From assembly GCF_054482595.1 (NCBI RefSeq), contig NZ_CM137008.1: a DNA stretch of 64,000 nucleotides. One strand, written 5' to 3'. The notes beneath the pieces are model-generated. The model made no database searches, was not told the origin of the DNA, and saw only the letters and a list, made by a program, of their open reading frames with translations. Within the stretch, counting starts at the first letter, position 1; each line of letters opens with the position of its first letter. A program made the position numbers and the translations under genes. Below, one piece after another: positions 1 to 47,544 of this stretch.

Positions 1-678
1 TAAGTAACGATGCGTCATGGCATCGTTATGCCATGAGGCGGGTAACTCGATGCGATCCGCCATTTCACCTTCCGGGACATCCAGCACCTGCTGTAAGGGT
101 GAAACCGATTTGCAATACCAGTAGCGGGCGAAATCATCGGCAACGTCCTCTACTACGGGTCCTATTGCCATGACATCTAAATCCGAAAAAAGTGGCTCTT
201 CCCCTGCCCCAAAATAGGCATCACCAATATTTCGCCCCCCTACCAGCGTCACCACGCCATCGACAGTGAAACTTTTATTGTGCATACGGCGATTGAGACG
301 GGAAAAGTCGGTGATATAACCAAGCGGACGCAGCAAGCGAAACGAGAAAGGATTAAAAAGCCGGACTTCAATGCGGGGATGGCTGTCAAGCAAGCGTAAA
401 ATGTCGTCAAGTCCGGGCGTATTGTTGTCGTCCAGCAACAAACGGACGCGAACGCCACGCTTTGCTGCGGCTAACAGGGCGGAAAACAGTAACCGACCCG
501 ACATATCGTCCTGCCAGATGTAATACTGAACATCCAGCGTATGCTCTGCCATTTCGGCCAGAAGATACCGGGCGGCAAACGCATCCAGACTTTTCTCCAG
601 AGGGAAAAGACCACACTGACCGGGATGTTGCGAACACAGTGGCAGCACCGCGCTCGCCAGCCGGGGCAAATCATTCAT
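1..678 (-). CDS. clsC: cardiolipin synthase C (phospholipase-D family); N-terminal ~226 codons, 3' end lies beyond window start
   Basis: Manual minus-strand translation from ATG 678..676 gives [58 protein letters not shown]... open to position 1, with an HxKxxxxD (HNKSFTVD) motif. Absent from the ORF track because no stop lies inside the window. Start overlaps the ymdB stop; synteny ymdA-ymdB-clsC as in K-12. Confidence 0.8.
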
Positions 679-1204
679 CTCCTTGTTGGGTAAGGAGTCT
701 TTCGTAGAGGTGGGCGTTTTCTTCATCATAACAGACAAAGTATACCTGTTCGGGTAAAGCGTGACGGGTAATAAATTCTGAAACGGTTTTTACTGCGATT
801 TCAGCCGCTGCCGCACGAGGGTAACCATAAACCCCAGTACTGATTGCAGGAAAAGCCACTGACGTATAGCTGTTTGCCGCCACCAGTCGCAGGCTATTGA
901 GATAGGCATCCTGCAAAAGCTGGTCTTCGTTTTGTTCACCACCACGCCAGACTGGCCCGACGGTGTGCACTACGGCTTTAGCGGGAAGATCGCCTGCAAG
1001 CGTAATAACGGCATGCCCCGTAGGGCAATCGCCCTGCTGTTGCCTGACTTTTAAACAAGCATCCAGCAGGGCCGGACCCGCTGCGCGATGAATGGCCCCA
1101 TCGACGCCGCGCCTCCCATTAATGACGGATTAGCCGCATTCACAATCACATCAACGGCCAGTTTGGTAATATCACCCTGCACAACATGAATACGCGTTTT
1201 CATA
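671..1204 (-). pseudogene. ymdB: macrodomain O-acetyl-ADP-ribose deacetylase YmdB, disrupted by a 1-bp deletion
   Basis: ATG at 1204..1202 translates [31 protein letters not shown], then goes out of frame inside the conserved GGGGVDGAIH codon run (+ strand reads gacgccgcgcctcc around 1105-1115, one c short) and stops near 1051. The C-terminal 99 codons (ORF 671..970, [10 protein letters not shown]...QQGDE) are in another frame. Confidence 0.75.
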
Positions 1205-1297
1205 ACGCCTCCTTACACCTTCTTGTTTCTTAAGTGTACAGCAGGCTTTTTGGTTAAATCGCATTTTTCTGCTCAGCAACGTGAGTTGTTCAGAAAC

Positions 1298-2062
<765 letters not shown>

Positions 2063-2120
2063 ATTCTTCTCCCGAAAAAAAACAGGGCTTGCGCCCTGTT
2101 TCTTTAATACAGATGATGTA

Positions 2121-2579
2121 TTAGTACTGATGAGCGGTCGCGTTGTTACCAAAGCCAACCTGAGTTACGTTGACGGTGGAATTAGATGCAGTCTGGTCAA
2201 CCGCTGCACCGTTGCCGCCACCGAACTGTTTAACTGTCATATGAGAGTCTTTACCGTTCCACTGATCAAGAGTGGCGCTGTTACCAAAGCCACGTTGGGT
2301 CAGATCGATTGAGCTGTCATCTGAGCCCTGACCAACATCTGCACCGTTACCACCACCATGCTGGGTAATAGTCAAGTCAGAGTTACGGGCATCAGCTTGC
2401 AGAGCAAGTGCAGAGTTACCACCACCGTACTGATAAATATTCAGCTCTGAATTCGGGCCGCTGTTATTACCACCACCACCGTGGTTACCGCCACCGCCGC
2501 CGTACTGAGGAACAACACCTGCCAGAGCGCTACCGGAGAATACGATTGCTGCAATTGCTGCTACTTTTAAAAGTTTCAT
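2121..2579 (-). CDS. csgA: major curlin subunit CsgA
   Basis: Signal peptide MKLLKVAAIAAIVFSGSALA, Gly-rich N-terminus and five imperfect Q/N-rich amyloid repeats ending ATAHQY. Confidence 0.95.
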   Translation of the reverse strand: MKLLKVAAIAAIVFSGSALAGVVPQYGGGGGNHGGGGNNSGPNSELNIYQYGGGNSALALQADARNSDLTITQHGGGNGADVGQGSDDSSIDLTQRGFGNSATLDQWNGKDSHMTVKQFGGGNGAAVDQTASNSTVNVTQVGFGNNATAHQY

Positions 2580-2619
2580 GTAAAACCCCCATCGGATTGA
2601 TTTAAAAGTCGAATGGAAA

Positions 2620-3075
2620 TTAACGTTGTGTCACGCGAATAGCCATTTGCGACTGTCTCTGCACTACAATTGCCGTTTTTTGAGTACCATACTGTGTAAT
2701 ATTTGCTTTATTACCAGAACCTTTCTGGATAATCATCGCAGTATTACCATAAGCACCTTGCGAAATACTGGCATCGTTGGCACTGCCCGCCTGATCAATA
2801 TATGCAAGGTTATAATCTCCTGTCTGGTCAATCTTTGCCCGGTTGCTACTACCTTCTTGCGCAACAACCGCCAAAAGTTTTGAGCCTCCCTGCCGTAACT
2901 GAGCACTATTATTAGTCCCAGCTTGACCAATTATGGCTGCCTGATTAAATGAAGACTTACTCAATTCATTTACCGCGAAGTTATATTCTGAATTAGCTAA
3001 ATCATAACCTGCTGCGGCTGCAATCCCAGGCGCACCCAATATTGTTAACATCATAAATAACAATTTGTTTTTCAT
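2620..3075 (-). CDS. csgB: minor curlin nucleator CsgB (151 aa)
   Basis: Internal start MKNKLLFMMLTILGAPGIAAA...; curlin repeat architecture; directly upstream of csgA. Confidence 0.95.
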   Translation of the reverse strand: MKNKLLFMMLTILGAPGIAAAAGYDLANSEYNFAVNELSKSSFNQAAIIGQAGTNNSAQLRQGGSKLLAVVAQEGSSNRAKIDQTGDYNLAYIDQAGSANDASISQGAYGNTAMIIQKGSGNKANITQYGTQKTAIVVQRQSQMAIRVTQR

Positions 3076-3828
3076 GTTGTCACCCTGGACCTGGTCGTAC
3101 ATTTAAGAAATTAAATCATTTCAACTTGGTTGTTAACGCAACCTGTATTTTGTTAACGCTGCGTTACGATGGAAAGTATGTCTGCGGAAATATTTTTAAT
3201 AACTCACCCGCGCGTTGTATTTTTCTTTTTTTGTTCATACCAAAGTATTAAAAGCCACGTAAATACGCTGTTATCTACGCAAAAAATATTTTGTTTTCTT
3301 TTAAATCTCCGTTTTCCGCTAGCAAAAAACACCAGACAGTCATTCTTCTTGCCCGTCGCTGATTGCTGCGATATGTCTTGCGCACAAGCCGTGACAAACC
3401 TCGTCTTTTTGCAGTAAAAAATTGTCCACGGTGGTGTGGAGAAAAAACAAGAACGTTTTACATGACGAAAGGACTACACCGAAATATTTTTTATATGCAT
3501 TATTAGTAAGTTAGCACCATTTGTATGATTTTTTAAAATTGTGCAATAAAAACCAAATGTACAACTTTTCTATCATTCCTAAACTTAATAAAACCTTAAA
3601 GTTAACATTTCAATATAACGAGTTACATTTAGTTACATGTTTAACACTTGATTTAAGATTTGTAATGGCTAGATTGAAATCAGATGTAATCCATTAGTTT
3701 TATATTTTACCCATTTAGGGCTGATTTATTACTACACACAGCAGTGCAACATCTGTCAGTACTTCTGGTGCTTCTATTTTAGAGGCAGCTGTCAGGTGTG
3801 CGATCAATAAAAAAAGCGGGGTTTCATC
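3076..3828. promoter_or_regulatory. divergent csgBAC / csgDEFG intergenic regulatory region (promoters and long csgD 5' UTR)
   Basis: ~750 bp AT-rich ORF-poor spacer between divergent csgB and csgD. In E. coli this region is a known hub for OmpR, CpxR, IHF, H-NS, MlrA and sigma-S and for sRNA targeting of the csgD leader. Individual sites were not mapped here. Confidence 0.8.
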
Positions 3829-4479
<651 letters not shown>

Positions 4480-4483
4480 AGCC

Positions 4484-4873
4484 ATGAAACGTTATTTACG
4501 CTGGATTGTGGCGGCAGAATTTCTGTTCGCCGCAGGGAATCTTCACGCCGTTGAGGTAGAAGTCCCGGGATTGTTAACTGACCATACTGTTTCCTCTATT
4601 GGCCATGATTTTTACCGAGCCTTTAGTGATAAATGGGAAAGTGACTATACGGGTAACTTAACGATTAATGAAAGGCCCAGTGCACGATGGGGAAGTTGGA
4701 TCACTATAACGGTCAATCAGGACGTTATTTTCCAGACTTTTTTATTCCCGTTGAAAAGAGACTTCGAAAAAACTGTCGTCTTTGCACTGATTCAAACTGA
4801 AGAAGCACTAAATCGTCGCCAGATAAATCAGGCGTTATTAAGTACGGGCGATTTGGCGCATGATGAATTCTAA
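4484..4873 (+). CDS. csgE: curli secretion specificity factor CsgE (129 aa)
   Basis: ORF track; order csgD-E-F-G with short spacers. Confidence 0.95.
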
Positions 4874-4897
4874 ATAAAAAATTGTTCGGAGGCTGCA

Positions 4898-5314
4898 ATG
4901 CGTGTCAAACATGCAGTAGTTCTACTCATGCTTATTTCGCCATTAAGTTGGGCTGGAACCATGACTTTCCAGTTCCGTAATCCAAACTTTGGTGGTAACC
5001 CAAATAATGGCGCTTTTTTATTAAATAGCGCTCAGGCCCAAAACTCTTATAAAGATCCGAGCTATAACGATGACTTTGGTATTGAAACACCCTCAGCATT
5101 AGATAACTTTACTCAGGCCATCCAGTCACAAATTTTAGGTGGGCTACTGTCGAATATTAATACCGGTAAACCGGGCCGCATGGTGACCAACGATTATATT
5201 GTTGATATTGCTAACCGCGATGGTCAATTGCAGTTGAACGTGACAGATCGTAAAACCGGACAAACCTCGACCATCCAGGTTTCGGGTTTACAAAATAACT
5301 CAACCGATTTTTAA
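4898..5314 (+). CDS. csgF: curli assembly/nucleation factor CsgF (138 aa)
   Basis: ORF track; signal peptide; operon position. Confidence 0.95.
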
Positions 5315-5340
5315 GCCCCAGCTTCATAAGGAAAATAATC

Positions 5341-6174
5341 ATGCAGCGCTTATTTCTTTTGGTTGCCGTCATGTTACTGAGCGGATGCTTAACCGCCCCG
5401 CCTAAAGAAGCCGCCAGACCGACATTAATGCCTCGTGCTCAGAGCTACAAAGATTTGACCCATCTGCCAGCGCCGACGGGTAAGATCTTTGTTTCGGTAT
5501 ACAACATTCAGGACGAAACCGGGCAATTTAAACCCTACCCGGCAAGTAACTTCTCCACTGCTGTTCCGCAAAGCGCCACGGCGATGCTGGTCACGGCATT
5601 GAAAGATTCTCGCTGGTTTATACCGCTGGAGCGCCAGGGCTTACAAAACCTGCTTAACGAGCGCAAGATTATTCGTGCGGCACAAGAAAACGGCACGGTT
5701 GCCATTAATAACCGAATCCCGCTGCAATCTTTAACGGCGGCAAATATCATGGTTGAAGGTTCGATTATCGGTTATGAAAGCAACGTCAAATCGGGCGGGG
5801 TTGGGGCAAGATATTTTGGGATCGGTGCCGACACGCAATACCAGCTCGATCAGATTGCCGTGAACCTGCGCGTCGTCAATGTGAGTACCGGTGAGATCCT
5901 CTCCTCGGTGAACACCAGTAAGACGATACTTTCCTATGAAGTTCAGGCCGGGGTTTTCCGCTTTATTGACTACCAGCGCTTGCTGGAAGGGGAAGTGGGT
6001 TACACCTCAAACGAACCCGTTATGCTGTGTCTGATGTCGGCTATCGAAACAGGGGTCATTTTCCTGATTAATGATGGTATTGACCGTGGTCTGTGGGATT
6101 TGCAGAACAAAGCAGAACGGCAGAATGACATTCTGGTGAAATACCGCCATATGTCGGTTCCACCGGAATCCTGA
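5341..6174 (+). CDS. csgG: curli secretion channel lipoprotein CsgG (277 aa)
   Basis: ORF track; lipobox LLSGC near the N-terminus; operon position. Confidence 0.95.
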   Translation: MQRLFLLVAVMLLSGCLTAPPKEAARPTLMPRAQSYKDLTHLPAPTGKIFVSVYNIQDETGQFKPYPASNFSTAVPQSATAMLVTALKDSRWFIPLERQGLQNLLNERKIIRAAQENGTVAINNRIPLQSLTAANIMVEGSIIGYESNVKSGGVGARYFGIGADTQYQLDQIAVNLRVVNVSTGEILSSVNTSKTILSYEVQAGVFRFIDYQRLLEGEVGYTSNEPVMLCLMSAIETGVIFLINDGIDRGLWDLQNKAERQNDILVKYRHMSVPPES

Positions 6175-6224
6175 CAGATAAAAAAGCCGGAATTATCATC
6201 CGGCATTTTACTGCTTAAGCGAAA

Positions 6225-6252
6225 GCGTGAGTGCCCCTCACGCTTTATTTTT
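6225..6252 (+). terminator. putative rho-independent terminator after csgG
   Basis: Inverted repeat gcgtgag / ctcacgc (6225-6243) followed by tttattttt; a second hairpin gccgg...ccggc sits at 6186-6205. Confidence 0.5.
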
Positions 6253-6729
6253 GATTTCCTGCTCACGGTGCGCCGTCTTTGCACTACGCGCCGCCAGCCA
6301 CAGGCCGCTGTTTTTCATTGCGTAACCAAATATCAGCCCAAGCGCCAGCGAAGGTAACACCAGTTTCCAGTCACCCTGCCCGGCAAACGTCGCGCATGCG
6401 CCTATAAACGTCCCCGGAACAAATGAAAGCAGCAGCTGTTTGGCCTGAATACACATCAGAAACGCGACAATACCGGTTATGACATAACCGAGAATTTCCA
6501 AATGTGGCGTCAGTGCACTACCGTAAATAATGACCATCGCCCACACCACGCCACTAAGCAGGGTTGCAGCGGAGATCGCCAGCCCTTTCAGCCCACCTTG
6601 CGGGCAGGCAAAGTAGGCCGTACAGCCCAGGAAGCCCGCCCAGCTTAGTAAGCCCAGGGAAACAGCCACCCATCCCCAGATACCGGAGAGAATGCCTGTT
6701 GTGATTGCAATAGAGAGAAGTATGTTCAT
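6238..6729 (-). CDS. ycdZ: inner-membrane protein YcdZ (DUF1097-type, 163 aa)
   Basis: Internal start MNILLSIAITTGILSGIWGW...; multiple hydrophobic helices; synteny. Confidence 0.8.
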   Translation of the reverse strand: MNILLSIAITTGILSGIWGWVAVSLGLLSWAGFLGCTAYFACPQGGLKGLAISAATLLSGVVWAMVIIYGSALTPHLEILGYVITGIVAFLMCIQAKQLLLSFVPGTFIGACATFAGQGDWKLVLPSLALGLIFGYAMKNSGLWLAARSAKTAHREQEIKNKA

Positions 6730-6830
6730 GCCGCGCATGATAGCAGAAAACGCGTCCATGAATGAGATCGAGCACACATTTTATGCAACAACAAATTATC
6801 TGTTGCAGTTATGAGTGACGCAGATCACAT

Positions 6831-7385
6831 TTACTCTTCAGAATCCTCTTCCAGCTCGTCCCACATTGCACTAATGGCATCACGGGTTAGCGGTGCCATG
6901 GTGCGCCAGAAAGGCGTGGTTGCATGGGCCTCCACTTTGCCAAGGAACGCGCCACACCAGGGTAACAGATACTCACTGAACAGTGTTCCCAGTGCTTCGC
7001 TCTCATCTTCCGTTGACTGATCTTCCAGCCAGGAAGCCGCAAGCAGCAATGTGCCGATGTGATCGGCTGGCGTATCCGCCAGTGGCATCCCTCGTTCAGA
7101 AAGAAAAGCGCGCACTTCCGCTTCCGTTGCGTCCTCAACCCATGCGCTACGATATGGCGGCACGGCACATTCATCGCCGATAAACAACGCATTGTAATCG
7201 GCAGAGACTTGCGTCATATCACAGCTTTTCTGCAAACGTGTCAGCAACTCATCCTGCTCCAGTGGCCAGTTCGCAGCCAGTTTCCCCTCACGAATCAGGG
7301 TAAACAGCGGCACCAGTAAAGGATCTTGTGGTTGGCGGTAATAGAGCGAACCCAGCACACGACAGAGGATAGAAAACTCGTTCAT
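6831..7385 (-). CDS. ycdY: TorD-family chaperone YcdY (184 aa)
   Basis: ORF track; paired with ycdX as in K-12. Confidence 0.8.
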   Translation of the reverse strand: MNEFSILCRVLGSLYYRQPQDPLLVPLFTLIREGKLAANWPLEQDELLTRLQKSCDMTQVSADYNALFIGDECAVPPYRSAWVEDATEAEVRAFLSERGMPLADTPADHIGTLLLAASWLEDQSTEDESEALGTLFSEYLLPWCGAFLGKVEAHATTPFWRTMAPLTRDAISAMWDELEEDSEE

Positions 7386-7408
7386 TAATATATTTCCATT
7401 ACTAGTAA

Positions 7409-8146
7409 TTAAAGGTCTGCAAATTCCGCAATCGGTGCCATACCGCGAGATTCAAGGAAGTTCAGTAAGCGGCGCGGAGAAACATTCAAAATGCGCTCTG
7501 GCGGAAAATCTACCGCGTCGAGGATTTTAAGACACTCTTCAAATTCCCCCATGGTAAACGCGGTGTGAGAATCCGAGCCTAATGCCACCCAACCTCCAGC
7601 ATCACGTACCGCTGCGGCTACCGCACGACAGTTGTCTTCACTGCCCTTACGTGAGTGTAAAAATGAGGAATTATTGATTTCCAGCGCCACCTGATGTTTC
7701 GCGGCTGCTTCAGCAACGGCTTTAACATCTATCTCATATTTCGGATTTCCGGGATGGCTTATTATATGCACATTGCCGCTGGCGATAGTGGCGATCATCG
7801 CTTGTGTATTGGTCGCTTTGTCATGTGGTGCAAAAACCGGCTCATGAAAACCGGCAATAATCAGATCCAGCGAATCAAACATTTTGCCGCTGCAGTCAAT
7901 TTCACCATCAACATTTTTAATGTTAGCTTCGATGCCGCGCAGGATCCCTACCCCATCAACCACTCGCGGCCAGATACGCATGTTAATGAAGTGCCAGTGA
8001 TGCGGCGCATCTTCCATATCCGGGCCATGATCGGTGATCGCAAAAAGTTTAATGCCCTTTTGTTTGGCCTGGGCAATGTAATCACTCAATGTGCTATATG
8101 CATGTGTGCTGGCAACGGTATGCATATGAAGGTCGACGGGATACAT
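7409..8146 (-). CDS. ycdX: PHP-family zinc phosphatase YcdX (245 aa)
   Basis: Begins [20 protein letters not shown] (PHP-domain His-rich metal site); synteny. Confidence 0.85.
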
Positions 8147-8200
8147 AACTCTCTCCTGTATTCAATTCCCGCCAAGGATAGCAGGAATCCTGATGCTTTA

Positions 8201-9178
<978 letters not shown>

Positions 9179-9372
9179 TTATCGTTATGATCTACAAAGG
9201 CCACCAGCATAACAAATCCGTGGTCGGTGGCAAAAAAAGCAGATTTCGCTTATTAAAACTGCATATTGATTGAAGTTTGAATAAACGCGCGATTTTTTCA
9301 AAAAGTTTGTTGACCTCAGGTCATGATTTCCCTAAATTAGCGCCCGTTCCAGCAAGACAGGAACGACAATTT

Positions 9373-9460
9373 GGTGAGGTGTCCGAGTGGCTGAAGGAGC
9401 ACGCCTGGAAAGTGTGTATACGGCAACGTATCGGGGGTTCGAATCCCCCCCTCACCGCCA
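9373..9460 (+). tRNA. serX: tRNA-Ser (anticodon GGA), class II with long variable arm, 88 nt
   Basis: GGTGAGGTGTCCGAGTGGCTGAAGGAGCACGCCTGGAAAGTG...GGTTCGAATCC...CTCACCGCCA; 7-nt anticodon loop CUGGAAA; T-loop GGTTCGAATCC; encoded CCA. Confidence 0.92.
9447..9460 (+). repeat. attL core: 14-bp direct repeat (ccccctcaccgcca) forming the serX 3' end
   Basis: Identical 14-mer recurs at 51067..51080 in the same orientation, immediately before a terminator-like hairpin that would be the native serX downstream sequence. Confidence 0.65.
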
Positions 9461-35534: not shown

Positions 35535-37427
35535 TTAGCCAAGAATCGAACGGCGAACTTTATAATAATATTTGATGAGCTTATTTCTTCTTGGCGAACC
35601 GACAGGAGCATATTTGTTAACATATGGCATTAAAGCTCTTTTAATCTTTGTCTGCAGTAACACGGTTTGCTGCAGTTCAGTATGTTGGTTAGGTACTACC
35701 GTGGCCACAGGTAACTGGCGATAGTAGATTTCTTTCTCCCATGGCGTACTTAAAACATTCTCAAGAAAATCATCATAGAAATCGACTTTCTCAGTATTCC
35801 ATGGTTTGTTTTCACCCGCATAGTGAATCATTTTTGGATTTCTTCTGGCTTGCAAAAAGCGCATATAGGTTGAAAACTTGAGATTCGGGAAGAAATCATC
35901 GGTATTACCATTACCATGGTACACGTTCCATTCTAATGGTAAGAATTTGACTCGGCCAAAGAAGACTTTGTTCATGATATCCTGATCTAAGAACCAATAC
36001 TTTTTGGCTTTCAATGCTGACATCAATTGAGCAAAGGTATTCTCTGTAACCATTTGTTCGACATTAAAAACAATAATCCCGGCCTGAAAATATTCGTCAG
36101 GATTAGTCATTCCTAATGTCTTTTTCAGGTATTGCTCTGCAGGCATAATGCCATCATCTGATTCTGACATGGTACCAAACTTCACAAACCCTTCCATGAC
36201 GATGTCTTTAACAGCGGCAACCAGGTTAGTGCCGATCTCGACATCCAGAAGTGTCGCCAAATCAGCCTTCACCACGGTGTCAGAATCGATAAACACAACT
36301 TTTTTATACTCGCGGAAAAGTTGCGGGATGAACAAGCGCGCATAGGTCGACGCACTAAAATGTGCACGGGTATGAACATCACTCATCTCAGTGAATGAAT
36401 TCACATCAAAAAAGCGCAATGATATGTTGTTATGACCAGCAACTAGCTTGATAAGGCGTTGTTTATTTAAATGACTGACCTTATTTTCCAGAACAACGAT
36501 ATCATAGTTTCTGCTCGCATCAGAATGGAGAACAATTGAATTGATTAATGCCCCGCCACTTAATGCATAGTTATTATCAAAACTAATAACAACCGGTACG
36601 CTTTCGTCAAAAACGGGCTTTAATTTACCATTAAATGTTTCAGCAGTAACAAACGTGCGCTGTAGTTCTTTTATTTTTAGCTGTTTATCTTGTTGACATT
36701 TGATGATATAGATATTGAATAAACGCTCAGCAATGTGTCCTATAACTCGTTTTTCTTGAGCGTTGTAGTTATTCATCGAAATCCGATCTTCAAGATTAGA
36801 CAAAATAGCAAAAAGCCATTCAGAATAATCCAGGAACATGTCTTTGCGCATAACAAACATGTTCGTATAATAACCATCAGTTGCATTATTGAATTGTTGA
36901 ATCGCAGCTTTATATTGTGGATACAGCTCTTCAACGACATCCAGGGCAGACTGATAGTCTTTAATGTGTAAAAACTCACCTTTTGCATAATGATCAAGGT
37001 TATTCTTACTTCCTGCCGATGTTACCGACCATTTTTTGGGTAACAGCAGATCATATCCATCGACGCAGGTGCTTATGGATTCATCACTTAATCCAAACTG
37101 GCTTTCGTATTCGGCATTGATGAGCGGGTAGTTGACTACCCCCCAGTTATCCTCAGGATGATTTTGTTGTTCTGCAAAGTTCAAGTGTCTGCGGTAATGC
37201 ATGAATCCCACATAGTCAGCCAGAGATTCATTCTTCCACACCCAGTAGTGGGCCGTCAGCTCACAATAGAAGGGGTTTTTAAAGGAAATGTTGTCTCCGC
37301 TATCATCCCCTTCACAGCCAATATCATTATAAGTATTAGCCTTCCCGACATGCAGTGGTTTAATAATAGAGGCATTTAGAAAAGCACTGGGTTTGTGGTG
37401 ACATGTATAAATTTTGATACTATTCAT
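35535..37427 (-). CDS. wbbM: bifunctional galactosyltransferase, WbbM-like (DUF4422 N-terminal plus GT8 C-terminal, 630 aa)
   Basis: N-terminal CELTAHYWVWKN-containing domain; C-terminal GT8 (VVISFDNNYALSGGALINSIVLH, DSDTVV); size matches Klebsiella WbbM (recalled). Confidence 0.65.
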   Translation of the reverse strand: MNSIKIYTCHHKPSAFLNASIIKPLHVGKANTYNDIGCEGDDSGDNISFKNPFYCELTAHYWVWKNESLADYVGFMHYRRHLNFAEQQNHPEDNWGVVNYPLINAEYESQFGLSDESISTCVDGYDLLLPKKWSVTSAGSKNNLDHYAKGEFLHIKDYQSALDVVEELYPQYKAAIQQFNNATDGYYTNMFVMRKDMFLDYSEWLFAILSNLEDRISMNNYNAQEKRVIGHIAERLFNIYIIKCQQDKQLKIKELQRTFVTAETFNGKLKPVFDESVPVVISFDNNYALSGGALINSIVLHSDASRNYDIVVLENKVSHLNKQRLIKLVAGHNNISLRFFDVNSFTEMSDVHTRAHFSASTYARLFIPQLFREYKKVVFIDSDTVVKADLATLLDVEIGTNLVAAVKDIVMEGFVKFGTMSESDDGIMPAEQYLKKTLGMTNPDEYFQAGIIVFNVEQMVTENTFAQLMSALKAKKYWFLDQDIMNKVFFGRVKFLPLEWNVYHGNGNTDDFFPNLKFSTYMRFLQARRNPKMIHYAGENKPWNTEKVDFYDDFLENVLSTPWEKEIYYRQLPVATVVPNQHTELQQTVLLQTKIKRALMPYVNKYAPVGSPRRNKLIKYYYKVRRSILG

Positions 37428-37441
37428 CTTATTACCAATTA

Positions 37442-38182
37442 TTAAGCCATTGCTTGCTTGTAAAGTTCAATGATTCTCTCTGCTGAGCCAATTTCGCGGA
37501 GTTTATGGTTTTCGATCCAAACAACTCTGTCACAGATTTTTTCAACATCACTCATATTGTGGCTAACGAATAATATCGTTACACCCTTATTTTTGAAGTC
37601 TCGTATTGTTTGTATACATTTGGCCTGGAACGAAATGTCACCGACAGCAAGTACCTCATCGATAATAAGTATATCGGGTTCTACCTGGCTGATGACAGAG
37701 AATCCAAGCTTCGCAAGCATACCACTTGAGTACACGCGAATAGGTTCGTCAATGAAATCACCCAGCTCGGAGAACTCAATTATCCGATCCATCCGTTGCT
37801 GAACCTCTTTGCGGCGTAGCCCAAGCAGGGTCGCATTGAGATAAATATTTTCTCGCCCGGTTAATTCAGGGTGAAAACCGCCGCCTAGCTCAAGCATTGA
37901 GGCAACGCGTCCCTGGGTTGTAACAGTGCCTTTTGTAGGCTTAATGACGCCGGCCACCAGCCCGAGGGAGGTACTTTTCCCTGCGCCGTTACGACCAATC
38001 AGCGCTACGGCCTCGCCTTTACCCACGGTGAAGGTAATGTCTTCGATCGCAAGATATTTACGCCCTTTTAACAGCTGAAAAGCTCTTTTAGGGTGAAATA
38101 CGAGATCCTTAATTCCTGAGCCAATATGGTGGTAAAGAGGATACTCTTTCGTAACGTGACTAAAGTTTATTACTGGTTCCAT
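37442..38182 (-). CDS. wzt: O-polysaccharide ABC exporter ATP-binding protein (246 aa)
   Basis: Walker A GRNGAGKST, signature YSSGM, Walker B LIIDEVLAVGD; start overlaps wzm stop (taATG). Confidence 0.82.
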   Translation of the reverse strand: MEPVINFSHVTKEYPLYHHIGSGIKDLVFHPKRAFQLLKGRKYLAIEDITFTVGKGEAVALIGRNGAGKSTSLGLVAGVIKPTKGTVTTQGRVASMLELGGGFHPELTGRENIYLNATLLGLRRKEVQQRMDRIIEFSELGDFIDEPIRVYSSGMLAKLGFSVISQVEPDILIIDEVLAVGDISFQAKCIQTIRDFKNKGVTILFVSHNMSDVEKICDRVVWIENHKLREIGSAERIIELYKQAMA

Positions 38183-38961
38183 TACAAAATCTCTGCAAAT
38201 CGATATTTTAATTTATTAAAAATACTCAGGCCCACAATTGTCAGGACTAAACCTGTAATGTAAAGGATTGAAATATATTCATAATTTAAGACGCCATCCA
38301 TGAACAGCTGCCGCCAGCTGAGGATCATGCTTGCCAGAGGATTATAGGTAATAATCCAGCTAAATTTTTCAGGAATCATATCTGACGCATATAATATCGG
38401 CGTGCAATAAAACATGAGCATGATACCAAGGCTGACAAATCGCTCTAAATCCCTGAAGAACAGATTTAGCGTAGAAAATATGATTGAAATACCAAATGTA
38501 AAAATCACCTGACCAAGCGCAATAATTGGTACGCCCCAGAGCCATGAGAGCGATGGACGCATACCATACACGAACAGGAATGCAATAATCACAGGAATTG
38601 TACACAAGAAATGTACCCCTTCCATCATGACATTACTCAATGGAATAACTGAGCGCGGAAAAACTGTTTTTTTGATTATTTGCGCATTGGCTATAAACGA
38701 AAACAAGGAATTTGTCGCCGAGCTGGCAAACCATTGCCACGGAAATAAACCGGTAATCAAGAAAAGGGTATAATTCGGGATCTGCACTCGCATAACGAGC
38801 TTAAAAATGAAATAATATATCATTGCAAAAAGCAGTGGATTCGCAATTGACCATAAGTAACCAAATACGCTGCTTTTATAACGTACCTTTAAATCTTTGT
38901 TTGTTATAACAACAAGAAGATCAAACAAATACCCTATATTATACTTCATTTTTATACTCAT
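38182..38961 (-). CDS. wzm: O-polysaccharide ABC exporter permease (ABC-2 type, 259 aa)
   Basis: Six predicted hydrophobic segments; first gene of the operon downstream of the ops element. Confidence 0.8.
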   Translation of the reverse strand: MSIKMKYNIGYLFDLLVVITNKDLKVRYKSSVFGYLWSIANPLLFAMIYYFIFKLVMRVQIPNYTLFLITGLFPWQWFASSATNSLFSFIANAQIIKKTVFPRSVIPLSNVMMEGVHFLCTIPVIIAFLFVYGMRPSLSWLWGVPIIALGQVIFTFGISIIFSTLNLFFRDLERFVSLGIMLMFYCTPILYASDMIPEKFSWIITYNPLASMILSWRQLFMDGVLNYEYISILYITGLVLTIVGLSIFNKLKYRFAEIL

Positions 38962-39270: not shown

Positions 39271-39899
39271 ATTGGCTATCGCAACCAAAATGCGGACTCC
39301 CCTCTCTAAAGTGTCTGTCTTACCCGGTCTTACCGTAACGAAGAGGATACGCTCGTCGTTAGCTCCACAAGCATTACCGGCGCAGCATTCATGAAGCCAC
39401 AAACAGCCTAGTCAGCGTTCGGCAAAAAAGCTAAAAACAAACGGATATCTGTACTCAGCGCCCCTCTCCGGACTCACATCCATCGCTACACCGCAACAAA
39501 TGCACCGCTACTTTCCCCAGTTTATGGCATCCTATCCATCAGGACTTTCTCATTTCACCCTTGAAACCAACAAAAAGCGTCACTCTCGGCAGTATGACTT
39601 CAACAGCCATGTAGCTGGGCGCTCCGCATCTCTACATGAGTCAGGCAGAGTATTAAGTTCGCGGGCAGGCAGCGGCAACACCACCAGGATAACGTACTTC
39701 CTCATCCTATCTTGCATAAAAGTGAATTTGACTTTTCTTCAAAAGTGGTCAAATCCGAGCGTCGTAGGGTACGTTTGCTGCGCATTATCAATAATGCATC
39801 CGTAGGACGTGAATTACGCGCGCATTATAGCTCTGGTCTGGAAGAATAAAAATGAAAAAGCATGACCAATCCATCCAGCCAAAAAATACTGAAGTGGTC

Positions 39900-40324
<425 letters not shown>

Positions 40325-42885
40325 TAAGCGTCGTCTGAGTACCGTCTGGTCCCGAATCCAGGATCCTGTAACTTAAGCACCCACTTATTTTGCAGGTGGA
40401 CACCTCATGCGCACCAAAGAACGACTCCCCCGGAAACGCTATTCTCCTGAATTTAAAATGGAACTGGTCAGGCTGGCCCTTGAACAAGATGTCACGAACG
40501 GTGCAATAGTGGTTCTTCCGCAACTTGGGTGGAAGAAAATGGATGAAACTTTCTGGTGAACAAGGATCTAAGCTGTTTTAAGTTATGGGCAACGCAATGC
40601 ACTCTCTTAAGACACTTCTACAGTTACCTTGCGGATGGCGATGCAGTCGACAAATTATTAGCTCTGACGGTATCACCCTCCATCTCCACGGAAAACGCAA
40701 AACAGCACAATGTCCTGAATGCTCTAAGCGTAGCGACTCTGTTCATAGTTCTCGTCGGCGCCGGATACAGCATCTACCCTGCTCCGGGCAGACGCTATGG
40801 CTTGTATTTTCCGTCCGCCACTGGTACTGCCGTAACCCTGTTTGTTCACGAAAAATTTTTGCCGAGTCGCTTGCTCCCTTCGCCGGTTCACACCAGCAGT
40901 CTTCACAGGCGTTACAAAATTTACAACGTCAACTGGGATTAATAGCCGGAGGTGAGGCTGGAAAACGGGCTGCAACGGCAGTGGGTCTCCGTTGCAGTGC
41001 AGATACTCTTCTTCGCAGGGTTATCAATACCCCGGGGACGAAACAGTCAGGCGCGCCTCATGTCGGTATTGATGAGTGGGCGTGGCATCGGGGCCACCGT
41101 TACGGTAAGTTAATCGTCAATCTTGATACTCACCGTCCCCTCGTCCTGCTTCCCGGTCGTGATCAGCGTACGCTGGCGACCTGGTTCAGAAAATATCCGG
41201 AAATACAGGTTGTCTCGCGTGATCGCAGTGGAGTCTATGCAACAGCAGCACGTGAAGGTGCACCTCAGGCCAGACAGGTGGCCGATCGATGGCACCTGCT
41301 AAAAAATATTGGCGATGCGCTTGAACGAATGATGTACAGACATATACCTCTGATACGTCTTGTTGCCAGTGAGTTGTCACTAAAGAAATCACCTGAGCCA
41401 GAACTGTCTGTGCCTGCAGTATCGCTCCGTCGTCCGGAACGCCTTAAACAGCAAACCCGCAAAAAACGGCATCAGCGTTGGACAGAGGTTATGGCCCTGC
41501 ATAACAAGGGATGTAGTTTCAGGGAAATATCCCGTATTCAGGCCTGTCGCGTGTGACAGTCAGTCGCTGGGTGCGTTCAGGAACATTCCCTGAAATGTCA
41601 ACCCGACCTCCAAAGCGAGGGCTTCTGGACCCATGGAGGGAGTGGTTAAAAGAGCAACGAGAAAGCGGTAATTATAACGCCAGCCGGATATGGCGGGAAA
41701 TGGTGGCCCGGGGGTTTACAGGCAGTGAAACCATCGTCAGGGATGCTGTTGCCAAATGGCGTAAAGGCTGGATCCCACCGGTTACTACTGCCGCCAGACT
41801 TCCTTCAGTGTCCCGGGTAAGCCGGTGGTTGATGCCCTGGAGAATAATCAGGGGGGAAGAAAATTATGCTTCCCGATTTATTAGTCTGATGTGTGAAAAA
41901 GAACCGGAGCTGAAAATAGCGCAGCAACTGGTACTCGAGTTCTACCGTATTCTGAAAACCCAAAATAAATCACAGCTTAGCAGCTGGTTCACTCGAGTCC
42001 ACGAAAGCGGCTCAGCAGAACTTCGGCGCGTGGCTGCGGGGATGGAAGCTGATGCTGCGGCTATATGTGAGGCAATCAGCAGTCGCTGGAGTAATGGTGT
42101 TGTCGAAGGTCATGTAAATCGCCTGAAGATGTTGAAACGCCAGATGTATGGTCGAGCCGGATTTGAACTGCTCAGGCAGAGGGTCATGAGTCCACTGGCA
42201 TGAAAATCTCCACCCAAGTTGCGGAAGAACCACTTTTCATCCGTCGTTGACACAAGAGGGCAGTATCGCTGCTCTGGCCCGTCAACATGACGTCAACGAT
42301 AATCTGCTCTTTAAATGGATAAGGCTCTAGCAACGTGAAGGGCGGGCGGGTCTGTCGACCCCGAAAAAATGCATCGTCGCTTCCTACCCTGATACCCGTG
42401 CAACTTCAGGCGGAGCCTTCTCTCCCGGAATTCGAACCACTATCCTGTTCACCTCCCACTGCCTGCCACATAAAATGTCGGGGCGGAGAAATAACGCTGA
42501 CCTCTCCCTCAGTTGAGCTTATGAGCACTGTCCTGCGCGAACTGATGCGGGGGTCTGTATGATAAATCTTCCCGCAGGCACAAAAATCTGGCTGGTTGCC
42601 GGTATCACCGATATGCGCAACGGCTTCAATGGTCTCGCCGCAAAGGTGCAGACAGCGTTGAAAGATGACCCGATGTCCGGCCACGTCTTCATCTTCCGGG
42701 GCCGCAGCGGCAGTCAGGTCAAACTGCTGTGGTCCACCGGCGACGGACTGTGCCTGCTGACCAAAAGGCTGGAGCGTGGCCGCTTCGCCTGGCCGTCGAC
42801 CCGCGATGGCAAAGTGTTCCTGATGCCGGCGCAGCTGGCGATGCTGATGGAAGGTATCGACTGGCGACAGCCAAAGCGGTTACTG
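40325..42885 (+). mobile_element. IS66-family remnant (orf1 split by an ISL3-like insertion, orf2 present, large transposase absent)
   Basis: gtaagcg terminus at 40325; orf1 N-terminus MRTKERLPRKRYSPEFKMELVRLALEQ (40407-) resumes after the insertion as ...EGSIAALARQHDVNDNLLFKWIRL; orf2 at 42559..42924 (MINLPAGTKIWLVAGITDMRNGFNGL...DWRQPKR). Confidence 0.5.
40494..42250 (+). mobile_element. ISL3-family-like insertion sequence with frameshifted transposase
   Basis: Imperfect ~40-bp terminal inverted repeats sharing core agtggttcttccgcaacttgggtgga (40508-40533 and complement 42209-42234); transposase in two ORFs 40585..41556 and 41553..42203 (zinc-finger N-terminus, GIDEWAWHRGHRYG, C-terminal SNGVVEGHVNRLKMLKRQMYG); frame break inside an HTH segment. 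Confidence 0.55.
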
Positions 42886-43744
42886 ACGTCCCTGACATGT
42901 TGTAGCCCAGGTCTTCTTCGTTGATAAAGTTCACATCCAGAGGATGGATACTTCCTGTAGCCCGTAATATCGTCGATTCAATATCCTGCACATTCATCGG
43001 GATCACCGATGCAAGAAAAGCCCATTGATCAGAATAAGGCTGGAAATTAATATCAACAAAAACGCTTCCCCCCGATGCACGCGGTCTTTTTTGCAGAGGT
43101 AACGCGATAAGATTACCAAATCCTCCTTTTGGCATAGTATCCTGATTAGGAAATAATCGGTCATAAGAACTCAATTGCAGCTGTCGGGTCCGGCTGCACG
43201 TATAGCTAATAATAGCAGTCCCCAGACGGCGAGCTTCGCGGGCCGAAACTCGTGAAGCAAAAAATATCCAGACATGCGCTCCCTGACGTGAGCGGGATAT
43301 TTCCAGCGCAGCAGGTACACTCAGCTCATCACAGGCTCGCATGAACGCGGATGCATCCTTCTGCCATTCAGCTTTATCAAAATCAACAGCCAGAAAATAA
43401 CAGGAATCATCTTCCAGCAACGGATATAACCCGGCAGTATGCGTGCCTGCCAGATGCTGGTAGATGACAAGATCAGATACAGGGAGTAACTGACGGTGCG
43501 TACAGTCCCCGCATTTTATCCGGGGTTTACCGCATATTCTCGCCTGCCATTCGTTAGCGCAGGCAGGAGAGTACCCTGATTTGCCGCTGGTTTTACTTTC
43601 CCAACGAAGGGCCCATATATCATCACGCCCACGAAACAACCGACGAAATAATGCAACCTTCTCGTCGGTGGATAATACGGAAACGCGCTGCACAGGGCTC
43701 GGCGGTTTACGTCGCCATTCCAAGTAATGAGACCAGACGGGCAT
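42719..43744 (-). pseudogene. primase-polymerase (AEP superfamily)-like protein, probably C-terminally truncated by the IS66 remnant
   Basis: N-terminal ~285 aa with DxD (LAVDFD) and sxH (RQGAHVWIFF) primase-like motifs and a C-x2-C pair; the last ~60 codons of the track ORF are antisense read-through of IS66 orf2. Confidence 0.45.
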
Positions 43745-43947: not shown

Positions 43948-44511
43948 TCAGTTGTGTCGTGGTCGGCCCCGGTTACTTTTTTCGGGAAGCCTGCTACGGC
44001 CCAGAATAATACCGTGTTCTTTCTGATCCTGTTTAGCCAGGTAGCTGAGGGCGTAACGTAAGTCGTCTACTGCGGACTTATCACTATAGTGAATCACGTG
44101 ATCGATACGCACCGGGTATTTATCTTTAGCCCGGCACAGATGAAAATAACCCTCCCCTTCCGTGATCCGCCTCCAGATATCCCCCAGTTGCCTGGATATC
44201 TGATAAGAGTTCTTGTGACGTTGCCCATCCAGATAGCCGATAAAATGAATATGAAGCCCTTTGTCTGGTGTATATTCCATAACCCAGTAATATCCTGCCA
44301 ACATCGTCTGGGTTTCGCTAAGTAAACGGTATATTTCCATACACATACTGTGCTTACAGGAATGCCCGAAACTGGGCGTGTCTTTCCTGTAGGCAAAATC
44401 AATTCTGAAAGGTAACAGTTTAGAAAAACGTTGAAACAATCCCTCCATGTGTTCATTCACATCTTTCAGAATCGCGAAATTCATTTCGTAATTGGGATTG
44501 GCATTATACAT
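43948..44511 (-). CDS. hypothetical protein (187 aa), possibly YfjJ/YagK-type (inovirus Gp2-like)
   Basis: ORF track; HIHFIGY motif; position in an integrase/AlpA/DUF3987-type module; family assignment uncertain. Confidence 0.4.
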   Translation of the reverse strand: MYNANPNYEMNFAILKDVNEHMEGLFQRFSKLLPFRIDFAYRKDTPSFGHSCKHSMCMEIYRLLSETQTMLAGYYWVMEYTPDKGLHIHFIGYLDGQRHKNSYQISRQLGDIWRRITEGEGYFHLCRAKDKYPVRIDHVIHYSDKSAVDDLRYALSYLAKQDQKEHGIILGRSRLPEKSNRGRPRHN

Positions 44512-45720: not shown

Positions 45721-47544
45721 TCATCGAGGATCTGACTGGTTGTTTTTAGTATCATCACCACAAATGATGGTTAATGCGTTGTAGATCAGTCTGCGTCTGT
45801 TCTTGTTTTCAGCATTATTTCCATACAACATCATGACGTTTTTAATATCATCAACCGGTGATATTACATAATCAACCAATACGCCAAGCTTCTCAATACA
45901 TTGCAGTAAAGTATATTTGTGTCTGCCCGTAAATAATCCTATCAGGTTTTCTTTACTTTCACGACTGGATAATATTTTGTTCTCTGTAATTAATTCAGCC
46001 AACGTTTCACCATCGTAAACACGTTCTTTATCTATCAGAATATTTATCTTATCTAACGCCCTCTCTACATTATCAAGAAGACCTGTAATATACGGAGGCT
46101 GAATATCTGACTTTGTACTAATATTTGCAAGCATCGAATTATACATTTTAATGACACGCATCAGAGTAAAATTATTCGCATCATATTGTATTTCATCTTC
46201 ATTATACGCAGGATCCGTCACGACCCTTAAGTCCATAAATGCATCCTGATAAGCTTTTACATAATCAAGTAATTCGAACAGTGAACCATGCTTTATTTTC
46301 TCCCTGTTTAATTTGATCTCCAGCGCTATCCTGAGAACTGAAAAAGCGCCGGGAAGATACCCAGAAGGTAACTCGTATTTTGGGGATTCATCATAAAACC
46401 GAAGAGCTTTGTGGAGTTTGTTCCGCCGAATCAGATAAATAAGGACGGCCAGTAACATGTAGCACCTGGTCACATAACCACGGGCATTCTGCAACTGTTC
46501 AAAATAATTAATAATGTTTTCCAGATATACATCATCATAACTTTTCTTATCAGAAAGATTAAACACCATATCTTTTAAAGATTCGATATATTCTTGTGAT
46601 TTATCATCAAGTGACACAATATAACGAGTTAATGCTCCTTTGGGGCCACTCTCAAACTCATGAAACCGTTCAAGTAATGCTCTTGCATAAGGCGTTGTGT
46701 CAAAAATATTAAAATCATAAAGATAGCGTGCAGCGTAGCCATACAACCCATGTACCCAAAGCCCTTCTCTTATCAGCACTCTGAGATAATATGCAATACT
46801 GTCAAGTATCTTTACCTTCCGTTGCATATCAAGCAAAATACTTAATGAATAAAATGCATAATAGAACTTGTCAATGTTGTTGAGTATTCTGTCCAGCTCA
46901 CTCTTATCAAGCTTCTTCTCTCTGTAATCCTTCTTGTATTCATTCTTACAGGCCTTTATATATTGTTTCATAAGGCTCTTCCTTTTACCGTACCCTTTTC
47001 GAATAGTTCCCTGGTATTTTCCCAGCTCATACATTTTTCCGTTTTCCCGAAAATCTTCTCTGTTAAATCCCAGTTCAGCAAGATACTCCCGGAGATAACG
47101 TTTAACGGCAGCCTCATCGCTTTCTGTACCAGAGTAATCCAGGCAGGGACAATATGATTTTTGCAAAAAATTATAGATATGATAATAAAACCCTGTTTCA
47201 TTCTCCGGACGATATGTGTTATATATATCCAGCACAATAAAAACAACTCCAAAGCTTTTCAGAAAATAGTTACGGATATATTCGGACTTTAATGTTGAAT
47301 ACACAGGGTAAGAATTCATCATGTAATAAAAATATTCATACCGGGAAAATATAATTCGCCGTTGTTCCAGACTATACACCCCTTCAGCATCAATAATTTG
47401 ACTGAGCTCATTATAACGTTGATCCCAGAATCTTTGATGCGCTCCAAAATCAGTACTCTTCCGCTTATCTCTCGGACTCTCTCCTTCCTTAAACAACTCA
47501 AAAACTGTACAAATATCATACAAAAGATTTGTAAACATGCGCAT
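45721..47544 (-). CDS. hypothetical protein (607 aa), AT-rich, no recognisable catalytic motif; divergent from alpA
   Basis: ORF track; Lys/Tyr/Asn-rich, largely helical-looking sequence; no Walker A, HKD, HNH, DDE or HEPN-like motifs recognised by eye. Confidence 0.6.
   Translation of the reverse strand: MRMFTNLLYDICTVFELFKEGESPRDKRKSTDFGAHQRFWDQRYNELSQIIDAEGVYSLEQRRIIFSRYEYFYYMMNSYPVYSTLKSEYIRNYFLKSFGVVFIVLDIYNTYRPENETGFYYHIYNFLQKSYCPCLDYSGTESDEAAVKRYLREYLAELGFNREDFRENGKMYELGKYQGTIRKGYGKRKSLMKQYIKACKNEYKKDYREKKLDKSELDRILNNIDKFYYAFYSLSILLDMQRKVKILDSIAYYLRVLIREGLWVHGLYGYAARYLYDFNIFDTTPYARALLERFHEFESGPKGALTRYIVSLDDKSQEYIESLKDMVFNLSDKKSYDDVYLENIINYFEQLQNARGYVTRCYMLLAVLIYLIRRNKLHKALRFYDESPKYELPSGYLPGAFSVLRIALEIKLNREKIKHGSLFELLDYVKAYQDAFMDLRVVTDPAYNEDEIQYDANNFTLMRVIKMYNSMLANISTKSDIQPPYITGLLDNVERALDKINILIDKERVYDGETLAELITENKILSSRESKENLIGLFTGRHKYTLLQCIEKLGVLVDYVISPVDDIKNVMMLYGNNAENKNRRRLIYNALTIICGDDTKNNQSDPR

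Follow-up and report, generated by a model that had tools for sequence, protein, structure and literature searches.

The analysed stretch of DNA (hereafter the window: 64,000 nucleotides of contig NZ_CM137008.1, assembly GCF_054482595.1) contains, in a tRNA-Ser-linked genomic island, the remnant of an IS66-family element whose first gene (orf1/tnpA) is interrupted by a second, ISL3-type insertion sequence. The coordinates of all features are listed in Table 1.

Table 1. The nested insertion and its surroundings (positions in the window)
Feature	Position	Strand	Description
IS3-type transposase remnant (integrase core, C-terminal part)	39920..40323	-	Ended by the IS66 left end; ORF 39920-40168 matches rve_3 and rve_2
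IS66-family left end	40324..40489	+	Tip GTAAGCG and 5' part of orf1/tnpA (start 40407); 98.8% identity to the E. coli 1105 copy (L003 3000-3166)
Target-site duplication CAAGA, left copy	40485..40489		Based on the uninterrupted IS66 copy and the repeat in the window
ISEc38-type (ISL3-family) insertion sequence	40490..42252	+	1,763 bp here, 1,764 bp when intact
Inverted repeat, transposase-start side	40490..40533	+	Outer 21-nt arm TGTCACGAACGGTGCAATAGT (type B), then inner 23 nt GGTTCTTCCGCAACTTGGGTGGA
Transposase fragment 1	40585..41556	+	323 aa; Zn_ribbon_ISL3 and first half of DDE_Tnp_ISL3
1-nt deletion site	41538..41539	+	ATT-CAG here, ATTACAG in all other copies; codon T319, HTH-1 of the IstA-like module
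Transposase fragment 2	41553..42203	+	216 aa from a mechanical GTG start; second half of DDE_Tnp_ISL3
Inverted repeat, transposase-stop side	42209..42252	-	Inner 23 nt as at the other end; outer arm TGTCAACGACGGATGAAAAGT (type A)
Target-site duplication CAAGA, right copy	42253..42257
Rest of IS66 orf1/tnpA, decayed	42253..42562	+	From alignment with E. coli 1105
IS66 tnpB (orf2)	42559..42924	+	TnpB_IS66 (PF05717), E 1e-37; annotated tnpB in ortholog
TOTE conflict-system AEP primase gene, truncated	42719..43744	-	AEP-TOTE, E 5e-100; abuts the IS66 remnant and is not part of the IS

The limits of the insert (40490-42252) could be set because an uninterrupted IS66-family copy in E. coli 1105 matches the window in two parts, at 40323-40489 (98.8% identity) and 42247-42906 (97.6%). 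CAAGA is found on both sides of the insert as a 5-bp target duplication, and TTGAACAAGAGGGCAG is present once in the uninterrupted copy. A repeat search detected the two 44-nt inverted arms, which are 84% complementary and 1,675 nt apart. In addition, independent plasmid copies of the element align to the window between these limits only (query 50/51 to 1813/1814 of window positions 40440-42302). The first-pass annotation had described an ISL3-type element of ~1.76 kb with ~40-bp imperfect inverted repeats inside IS66 orf1; the repeat arms, the uninterrupted IS66 copy and the profile matches given below all agree with this description, with the correction that the left tip of IS66 begins at 40324 and not at 40325.

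The IS66 host is a dead and truncated remnant of its family and not a functional member. From the family gene set (tnpA, tnpB and tnpC between GTAAGCG-type ends) only the left tip, the interrupted and decayed tnpA and tnpB are left; tnpC and the right end are absent from this locus, where IS66 homology ends at 42906. Compared with the intact copy in E. coli 1105, orf1 has a TAG at 42328-42330 in place of TGG and an additional GGGC within 42340-42347 (a 4-nt duplication). The two parts of orf1 had been correctly placed on both sides of the insert before, but its stop codon, its duplication and the loss of tnpC had been overlooked. The left-end part also gave a weak HTH_Tnp_1 match. Both neighbouring genes are annotated as pseudogenes in orthologous loci: a DDE-type integrase at 39898-40323 and the AEP primase. 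With regard to the surroundings of the island, window positions 1-9400 are matched over equal length and at ~100% identity by the Santai, SM107 and W619 genomes; Santai and SM107, the two inspected, have the identical 9.4-kb backbone and a different island at this site.

Judging from the labels assigned by PGAP, the inserted element appears to be ISEc38 or a close isoform, that is, an already catalogued insertion sequence. Its nucleotide identity to PGAP-labelled ISEc38 copies is 96-97%, and the transposase is 96% identical to a protein labelled 'ISL3-like element ISEc38 family transposase' (P0055). Matches to Pfam DDE_Tnp_ISL3 and Zn_ribbon_ISL3 exceed the cut-offs, and the ISL3 family model NF033550 scored 365.7 bits for the intact orthologue (cut-off 180) and 252 and 111 bits for fragments 1 and 2, respectively. 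In the literature, ISEc38 was found in lists of mobile elements only.

The transposase of the window copy is divided into two ORFs that overlap in GTGA (41553-41556), as had been stated before. Fragment 1 covers the RNase H-like DDE domain in its N-terminal part, including D163, D213 and D234, and its final five residues (QACRV) are out of frame; fragment 2 contains the remainder of an IstA-like module, an alpha-helical region, E508 and K515. This two-ORF split arises from the absence of one A after 41538; the stop codon of ORF1 lies 15 nt further downstream. Accordingly, of the earlier localization of the split, the ORF overlap stands, but the actual lesion lies upstream of it. The assignment of the break to a helix-turn-helix segment holds well: the intact protein reads ...FREISRITGLSRVTVSRWV... 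around it, and HTH_7, HTH_17 and HTH_38 matches fall within residues 293-338.

An uninterrupted transposase ORF, which is broken between 41538 and 41539 in the window, is present at the orthologous loci. E. coli CFSAN061769 and SMS-3-5 have the same nested insertion, show no difference from the window across 9.7 kb other than the A following 41538, and are each annotated with one 1,620-nt ISL3 transposase gene (WP_012311606.1, 539 aa). The A is present in all of five further copies from four different contexts; the 91-nt site with the extra base occurs in 3,032 records, and a 40-mer centred on the deletion had no match in 5,426 complete genomes. The IS66::ISEc38 junction itself is common to 72 complete-genome records. 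Among 15 complete elements from Escherichia, Budvicia, Citrobacter, Serratia, Rahnella and Trabulsiella, 12 have a single ORF of 528-539 aa, and the breaks of the other three lie elsewhere than the deletion in the window. A scan of viral contigs for further copies returned one locus only. The deletion is thus private to the window. Other copies, among them those located at exactly this place in the chromosome, encode the transposase in one intact ORF, an outcome that the first-pass annotation had itself named as refuting.

Two explanations would give the split gene a function. One of them, raised in the first-pass annotation, is that programmed -1 ribosomal frameshifting joins the two ORFs into a full-length transposase, as in IS1 and IS3. 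The ORFs do overlap, and ORF2 is read in frame -1 with respect to ORF1; however, the 40-nt frame overlap (41517-41556) holds no slippery heptamer in register: the only one there that resembles X XXY YYZ, GGGAAAT, is out of register. Moreover, the layout is not conserved, since every other copy lacks the deletion, including the 72 genomes sharing the junction, and a single intact ORF is usual across genera and in more than 150 clusters of homologues of ~530-560 aa. Given the absence of a slippery site, the single ORF in 12 of 15 relatives and the private deletion, programmed frameshifting is rejected, and we consider its chance of being correct negligible. The other explanation is that termination and reinitiation at GTGA produce two polypeptides, whose halves reassemble into an active enzyme or the first of which acts as an inhibitor that binds the ends. 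Truncated transposases are known to act as inhibitors in other insertion sequence families (Tn5 Inh and IS911 OrfA). Although the stop and start codons overlap in a way that could in principle permit reinitiation, and the Zn ribbon and N-terminal region are retained in ORF1, the overlap is an accidental by-product of the private deletion, and the GTG has no Shine-Dalgarno-like sequence in front of it. In addition, residues 319-323 of HTH-1 are lost through the cut, and the module to which they belong is well conserved in the family. Reinitiation therefore seems highly improbable.

It is very probable that ISEc38 or a close isoform lies in IS66 orf1 with its transposase broken by a private 1-nt deletion, as a case of ordinary decay. 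The element would have transposed into IS66 orf1 (tnpA), making the 5-bp duplication. The age of the nested insertion shows in its presence in at least 72 sequenced E. coli genomes. Loss of the A in codon T319 would then have shifted the frame and led to a stop five codons later, so that the protein would be cut within HTH-1 of an internal module for DNA binding, between D163/D213/D234 and E508. Because neither fragment has the complete active site, the window copy should be unable to mobilize itself and has presumably lost transposase activity, which was the first of the two options offered earlier; with both ends intact, it could still move in trans.

The window copy is either inactivated in this way or its missing base is a sequencing or assembly error, in which case the true sequence at 41536-41542 would be ATTACAGG and the transposase an intact protein of 539 aa. 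The anatomy is the same under both readings, which differ only as to whether the lesion exists in the cell. That none of the 5,426 complete genomes has this deletion speaks for an error, as does the comparison with CFSAN061769: besides the missing A, the 41-kb island differs by only four substitutions and one other 1-nt deletion (28966), and all four 1-nt indels between the window and this genome are deletions in the window. However, no homopolymer is present at the site (GTATT[A]CAGG), and another 1-nt deletion of the window, in ymdB near 1109, is apparently shared with Santai, SM107 and W619; its presence in three independent complete genomes suggests that the assembly is not obviously prone to indels. 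Pseudogenized ISEc38-like copies are also common in E. coli, for example one (L007) annotated 'frameshifted; internal stop'. An error is therefore a possible but less probable origin of the missing base. For annotation, this copy calls for a pseudogene label or for comparison with reads. The split gene itself matters little, being one more decayed insertion sequence in a graveyard of such elements. The lesson is to compare a split transposase with its orthologous copies first, and only then to consider frameshifting.

The ISEc38 transposase shares homology at residues ~302-401, the stretch in which the break falls, with the tandem HTH-1/linker/HTH-2 region of the IS21 transposase IstA (residues 10-103), as indicated by phmmer (E 2e-11), the NCBIfam IS21 profile (positions 2-100, E 3e-16) and Foldseek (28% identity, rmsd ~4 A over 98 columns). 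The first-pass annotation had recognized a helix-turn-helix at the break but not that it belongs to an IstA-like module in the catalytic domain. The module is placed between the catalytic aspartates and E508, with the deletion inside it. A set of 83 sequences (32-42% identity) shows no variation at D163, D213, D234, E508 and K515, and in the AlphaFold model (pLDDT 91.6) RNase H-like strands span residues 159-233 and E508 is on a later helix; from this invariance and the model, D163, D213, D234 and E508 are the probable catalytic residues. ISL3 transposases with an IS21-type module in the catalytic domain comprise more than 2,000 clusters at 50% identity (E <1e-30). We found no literature linking ISL3 and IS21 domains.

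The ends of the element are also unusual. The inner 23 nt (GGTTCTTCCGCAACTTGGGTGGA) represent the usual ISL3-type end motif, which is subterminal in the window copy: the GG(C)TCTT motif is present in both arms (40511-40533 and 42209-42231), 21 nt inside the tips, and homology among independent copies extends to TGTCA/TGACA. Six independent insertions show 5-bp duplications (CAAGA, ATTAC, CACCA, GGTGC, ACAAC and CAAAC). ISL3 elements usually duplicate 8 bp of target, and no 8-bp repeat was found at either boundary of the window element. A case of an 8-bp duplication adjoining an ISL3 element has been described (PMC11702846).

Two other ways of drawing the ends were considered and rejected. First, an element bounded by GG...CC (1,722 bp) with an 8-bp duplication is ruled out, as its flanks GCAATAGT and ACTTTTCA are inverted and not direct, 47 further bases are missing from the uninterrupted IS66, and plasmid copies share sequence out to TGTCA. 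Second, the outer arms cannot be, in E. coli, halves of a palindromic host target, as they travel into unrelated sites and the duplications fall outside them. Among distant long-form relatives (L038, L039, L049-L051) the evidence for outer arms is mixed: in one of them a clear arm is seen at a single side, a second has a 39-nt inverted repeat in which GGTTCTC is subterminal, and the remaining sequences are too short.

In enterobacteria, the IS21-type module accompanies the unusual ends and the 5-bp duplication. We tentatively raise the idea, with more doubt than confidence, that the ISEc38 group may be an undescribed ISL3 subclass with an IstA-like module in the core, composite ends, 5-bp duplications and shuffled arms. 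Each composite end would consist of a 21-nt outer arm with a TGT tip followed by the classical ISL3 end motif, and the two outer-arm variants might be swapped between ends via crossovers within the 23-bp inner repeat. It may even be, purely as an inference, that the inserted module reads the outer arm and shifts the cleavage point outward. The clade with this module would offer a natural test of how end-recognition modules set cleavage position and target stagger, which may interest transposon specialists.

Finally, the element can be compared with known systems. It resembles ISEc38 in length class (1,764 bp between TGT...ACA tips) and in having the same inner and outer repeats, whereas the window copy is one base short with a split ORF, and the lineage found here (WP_012311606.1), which carries no label beyond 'ISL3 family transposase', is ~4% diverged from the copies that PGAP names ISEc38. 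With classical ISL3 elements (IS1165, IS31831 and the ISL3 type) it shares Zn_ribbon_ISL3 and DDE_Tnp_ISL3, an end-to-end match to the NCBIfam ISL3 equivalog, the end motif GG(T/C/G)TCTTCC and a single ORF as the normal state. It differs from them in that the GG motif lies 21 nt inside the true tip, the duplication is 5 bp and not 8 bp, and the internal insert makes the ISEc38 transposase exceed the family profile of 370 positions by ~135 aa. The two overlapping ORFs, the second in the -1 frame, recall IS1 and IS3, but the window copy lacks a slippery heptamer and conservation, and its layout comes from a private deletion. The likeness to IS21 (IstA, for example IS5376; PDB 8b4h and 8q4d) comprises the tandem HTH region, the terminal CA and the 5-bp duplications; tips of TGTCA...TGACA with 5 bp agree with the TG...CA tips and 4-5-bp duplication of that family (PMC10122671). 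On the other hand, matches cover IstA ~2-110 only, with none to its catalytic, beta-barrel and C-terminal domains, and ISEc38, with room for one gene only, has no gene for the IstB ATPase (AAA+ helper).

The layout proposed in the first-pass annotation, an ISL3-type element within IS66 orf1 that has inverted repeats and a two-ORF transposase, is borne out by the predicted ORFs and by the nucleotide sequence itself. E. coli 1105 (locus L003) has the same IS66-family element without the insertion, and this copy aligns to window positions 40323-40489 and 42247-42906. At the break point this copy reads ...CCCTTGAACAAGAGGGCAG..., whereas the window reads ...TTGAACAAGA[TGTCACG ... CGTTGACA]CAAGAGGG... 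(square brackets enclose the insert). Thus, the ISEc38-type insert spans 40490-42252 (1,763 bp), with the 5-bp direct repeat CAAGA on either side. Near-identical transposases carry the PGAP label 'ISL3-like element ISEc38 family transposase', and the window element showed 96-97% nucleotide identity to PGAP-labelled ISEc38 copies. In the literature, mentions of ISEc38 were found only in lists of mobile elements. In a plasmid collection, 972 Klebsiella plasmids contained an ISEc38 relative (60-80% identical).

Features of the nested insertion and its surroundings (window coordinates unless a comparison locus is named)
Feature	Position	Strand	Remarks
Short ORF, MRTKERLPRKRYSPEFKMELVRLALEQ...	start 40407		weak HTH_Tnp_1 match (5' part of IS66 first gene)
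Inverted arms	40490-40533 / 42209-42252		44 nt, 84% complementary (repeat search)
ISL3-type transposase ORF1	40585-41556		ORF list, Pfam
IstA-like tandem HTH module (HTH-1, linker, HTH-2)	41470-41790; intact gene L001:4075-5694		residues ~295-401
ISL3-type transposase ORF2	41553-42203		ORF list, Pfam
IS66 tnpB	42559-42924		Pfam match; preceded by remainder of IS66 first gene
Truncated TOTE conflict-system AEP primase gene	42719-43744	-	adjoins IS66 remnant
YagK/YfjJ (inovirus Gp2-type) gene	43948-44511	-	after TOTE AEP primase gene
607-aa protein, no function assigned	45721-47544	-	after YagK/YfjJ gene
Target duplications			CAAGA (window); ATTAC (L004); CACCA (L019); GGTGC (L026); ACAAC (L041); CAAAC (L042)

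Megablast detected the element in 3,402 of 5,426 complete E. coli genomes, the best matches being 1,723 bases long for a query of 1,722. The nested insertion also occurs, within the same island, in two of these genomes, CFSAN061769 and SMS-3-5, where a single 1,620-nt gene (WP_012311606.1) is annotated for the transposase. When 9.7 kb spanning the element were aligned with MAFFT, the window differed from both genomes at a single point: it has no A after 41538 (ATT-CAG vs ATTACAG). The A-containing frame encodes ...FREISRITGLSRVTVSRWVRSG...; loss of the A shifts the frame at codon 319, and a stop codon follows QACRV. The A is kept in five other copies representing four contexts (two chromosomal sites, two plasmids and a widespread pseudogenised copy), and the 91-nt site with the extra base occurred in 3,032 records. 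A 40-mer centred on the deletion, for which megablast seeding is possible only where the deletion is shared, had zero matches in the 5,426 genomes. Since the IS66::ISEc38 junction was present in 72 records and this 40-mer was unmatched, sequence comparison indicates an inherited insertion and a deletion confined to the window's genome. The split described in the first-pass annotation does exist in the window; the frameshift is shared with none of the other copies compared, and the same-site copies in CFSAN061769 and SMS-3-5 have an intact ORF.

The missing A is probably a real mutation. A sequencing or assembly error would fit its uniqueness among the 5,426 genomes and the near absence of other differences from CFSAN061769 across the surrounding 41-kb island (four substitutions and a further 1-nt deletion). 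However, such an error appears the less probable explanation: the site is not a homopolymer, pseudogenised ISEc38-like copies (for example, L007) are common, and a 1-nt deletion in ymdB of the same window, apparently common to three independent complete genomes, suggests that the assembly is not indel-prone. On either reading the feature is unremarkable: a known IS, sitting inside a dead one, has lost a single nucleotide in this genome alone, or its sequence contains an error.

The ymdB deletion (conserved macrodomain gene, window ~1051-1203) falls inside the GGGGVDG motif and causes a frameshift; Santai, SM107 and W619 match positions 1-9400 with equal length and ~100% identity, so the allele is apparently shared by all three. 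The second 1-nt deletion relative to CFSAN061769, at 28966, is located between two annotated IS3-family transposase CDSs, and all four 1-nt indels between the two sequences were deletions in the window. L007 (E. coli EC20 1893024-1894740, annotated 'frameshifted; internal stop') represents a single conserved pseudogenised copy found at one chromosomal site in most E. coli (L007 and ~2,700 other genomes), where it adjoins zinc-ribbon and inovirus Gp2-type genes.

The IS66 host element is a dead wreck. Compared with the intact copy in E. coli 1105, its orf1 has TAG instead of TGG at 42328-42330 and an additional GGGC within 42340-42347. Homology stops at 42906, implying loss of the right end and of tnpC, the transposase gene; the remnant lies between an IS3-type integrase remnant (left) and the truncated AEP primase gene (right). 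The surrounding tRNA-Ser-linked island (~9370-51000) is almost the same as its counterpart in CFSAN061769 (4 SNPs over ~41 kb), whereas the flanking core genome is ~1% diverged, which implies recent horizontal spread of the island. Santai and SM107, with an identical backbone, have a different island at this site. A polysaccharide cluster of O-antigen-like, ABC-transporter-dependent type (~31000-38960; permease, ATPase (rfbB), DUF4422 protein, glf and glycosyltransferases) also lies in the island rather than at the usual O-antigen locus, and it may resemble the Klebsiella galactan cluster. Beyond the 607-aa protein gene, genes for an HTH regulator, a DUF3987 protein and an integrase follow in the orthologous locus and may represent a second small integrative element.

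With regard to expression of the split transposase, the first-pass annotation had offered inactivity or programmed frameshifting. ORF2 occupies the -1 frame, and both frames are open together only over 41517-41556, where the sole X XXY YYZ-like heptamer, GGGAAAT, does not lie in register. Of 15 complete elements (E. coli, Budvicia, Citrobacter, Serratia, Rahnella and Trabulsiella), 12 had one ORF of 528-539 aa, the other three being broken at sites other than the window's. A search of 1.84 billion representatives yielded >150 clusters of ~530-560 aa, most of which aligned without interruption to almost the entire query. Programmed frameshifting is refuted by the lack of an in-register heptamer, the single ORF in relatives (including same-site copies) and the private nature of the deletion.

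The intact transposase aligned with the entire ISL3 equivalog (365.7 bits) and is ~135 residues longer than the profile; its Pfam DDE_Tnp_ISL3 match is split at profile positions ~135/115. The extra segment (residues ~302-401) shares homology with the tandem HTH at the N terminus of IS21 IstA (NCBIfam IS21 profile positions 2-100, E 3e-16; PDB 8q4d/8b4h residues 10-103, E 2e-11; Foldseek, 28% identity, rmsd ~4 A). In IstA, both HTH domains read transposon-end repeats (PMC10122671). The module interrupts the ISL3 catalytic domain after the aspartates and before E508, and the window's deletion falls within HTH-1. Of all the observations, only the ISEc38 group's architecture, ends included, might be novel. 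Long-form ISL3 transposases are widespread (>150 clusters at E < 1e-84; 2,270 at E < 1e-30).

Alignment of 83 homologues (32-42% identity) showed no variation at D163, D213, D234, E508 or K515; in the AlphaFold model based on it (pLDDT 91.6), residues 159-233 contain the RNase H-like strands and helix 505-520 carries E508. Thus, the deletion parts the aspartates (ORF1) from the glutamate (ORF2), and the window copy is predicted to be unable to make active transposase, in agreement with the inactive alternative of the first-pass annotation. Given its intact ends, the copy could be mobilised in trans by another ISEc38 copy; no second copy was present within the 64-kb window.

In ISEc38-type elements, the classical ISL3 end motif GG(T/C/G)TCTTCCGCAAC... 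is subterminal, and an outer 21 nt starting with TGT(C/T)A moves along with the element. The tips, TGTCA...TGACA, lie 21 nt beyond the GG motif; in plasmid copies, the sequence shared with the window runs exactly from 40490 to 42252. Perfect 5-bp duplications were found at the tips of six independent insertions; in the window, they and the inverted arms together occupy 40485-40533 and 42209-42257. The outer arms are of two sequence types, A and B, each occurring at either end (window 40490-40510 / 42232-42252). Among 14 elements compared (including the window, L004, L005, L008, L032 and L041-L046), all six with a duplication had one A and one B arm, and all five with two like arms lacked it; L005 and L041 had chimeric inner repeats. 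In E. coli genomes, the start-side arm was exact B in 318 records, exact A in 461 and A with one mismatch in ~2,731. The pattern across these 14 elements would fit exchange by crossover or template switching within the 23-bp inner repeat: inside one element, this would swap the arms and keep the duplication, whereas between two elements it would generate A/A and B/B forms and lose the duplication.

The usual ISL3 target duplication is 8 bp. Compared with classical ISL3 elements, ISEc38-type elements make duplications of 5 bp rather than 8 bp, and their GG motif is subterminal rather than at the tip. IS21 generates 5-bp duplications and has ends in CA (PMC10122671); a 5-bp duplication and a TGACA tip are also found in ISEc38-type elements.
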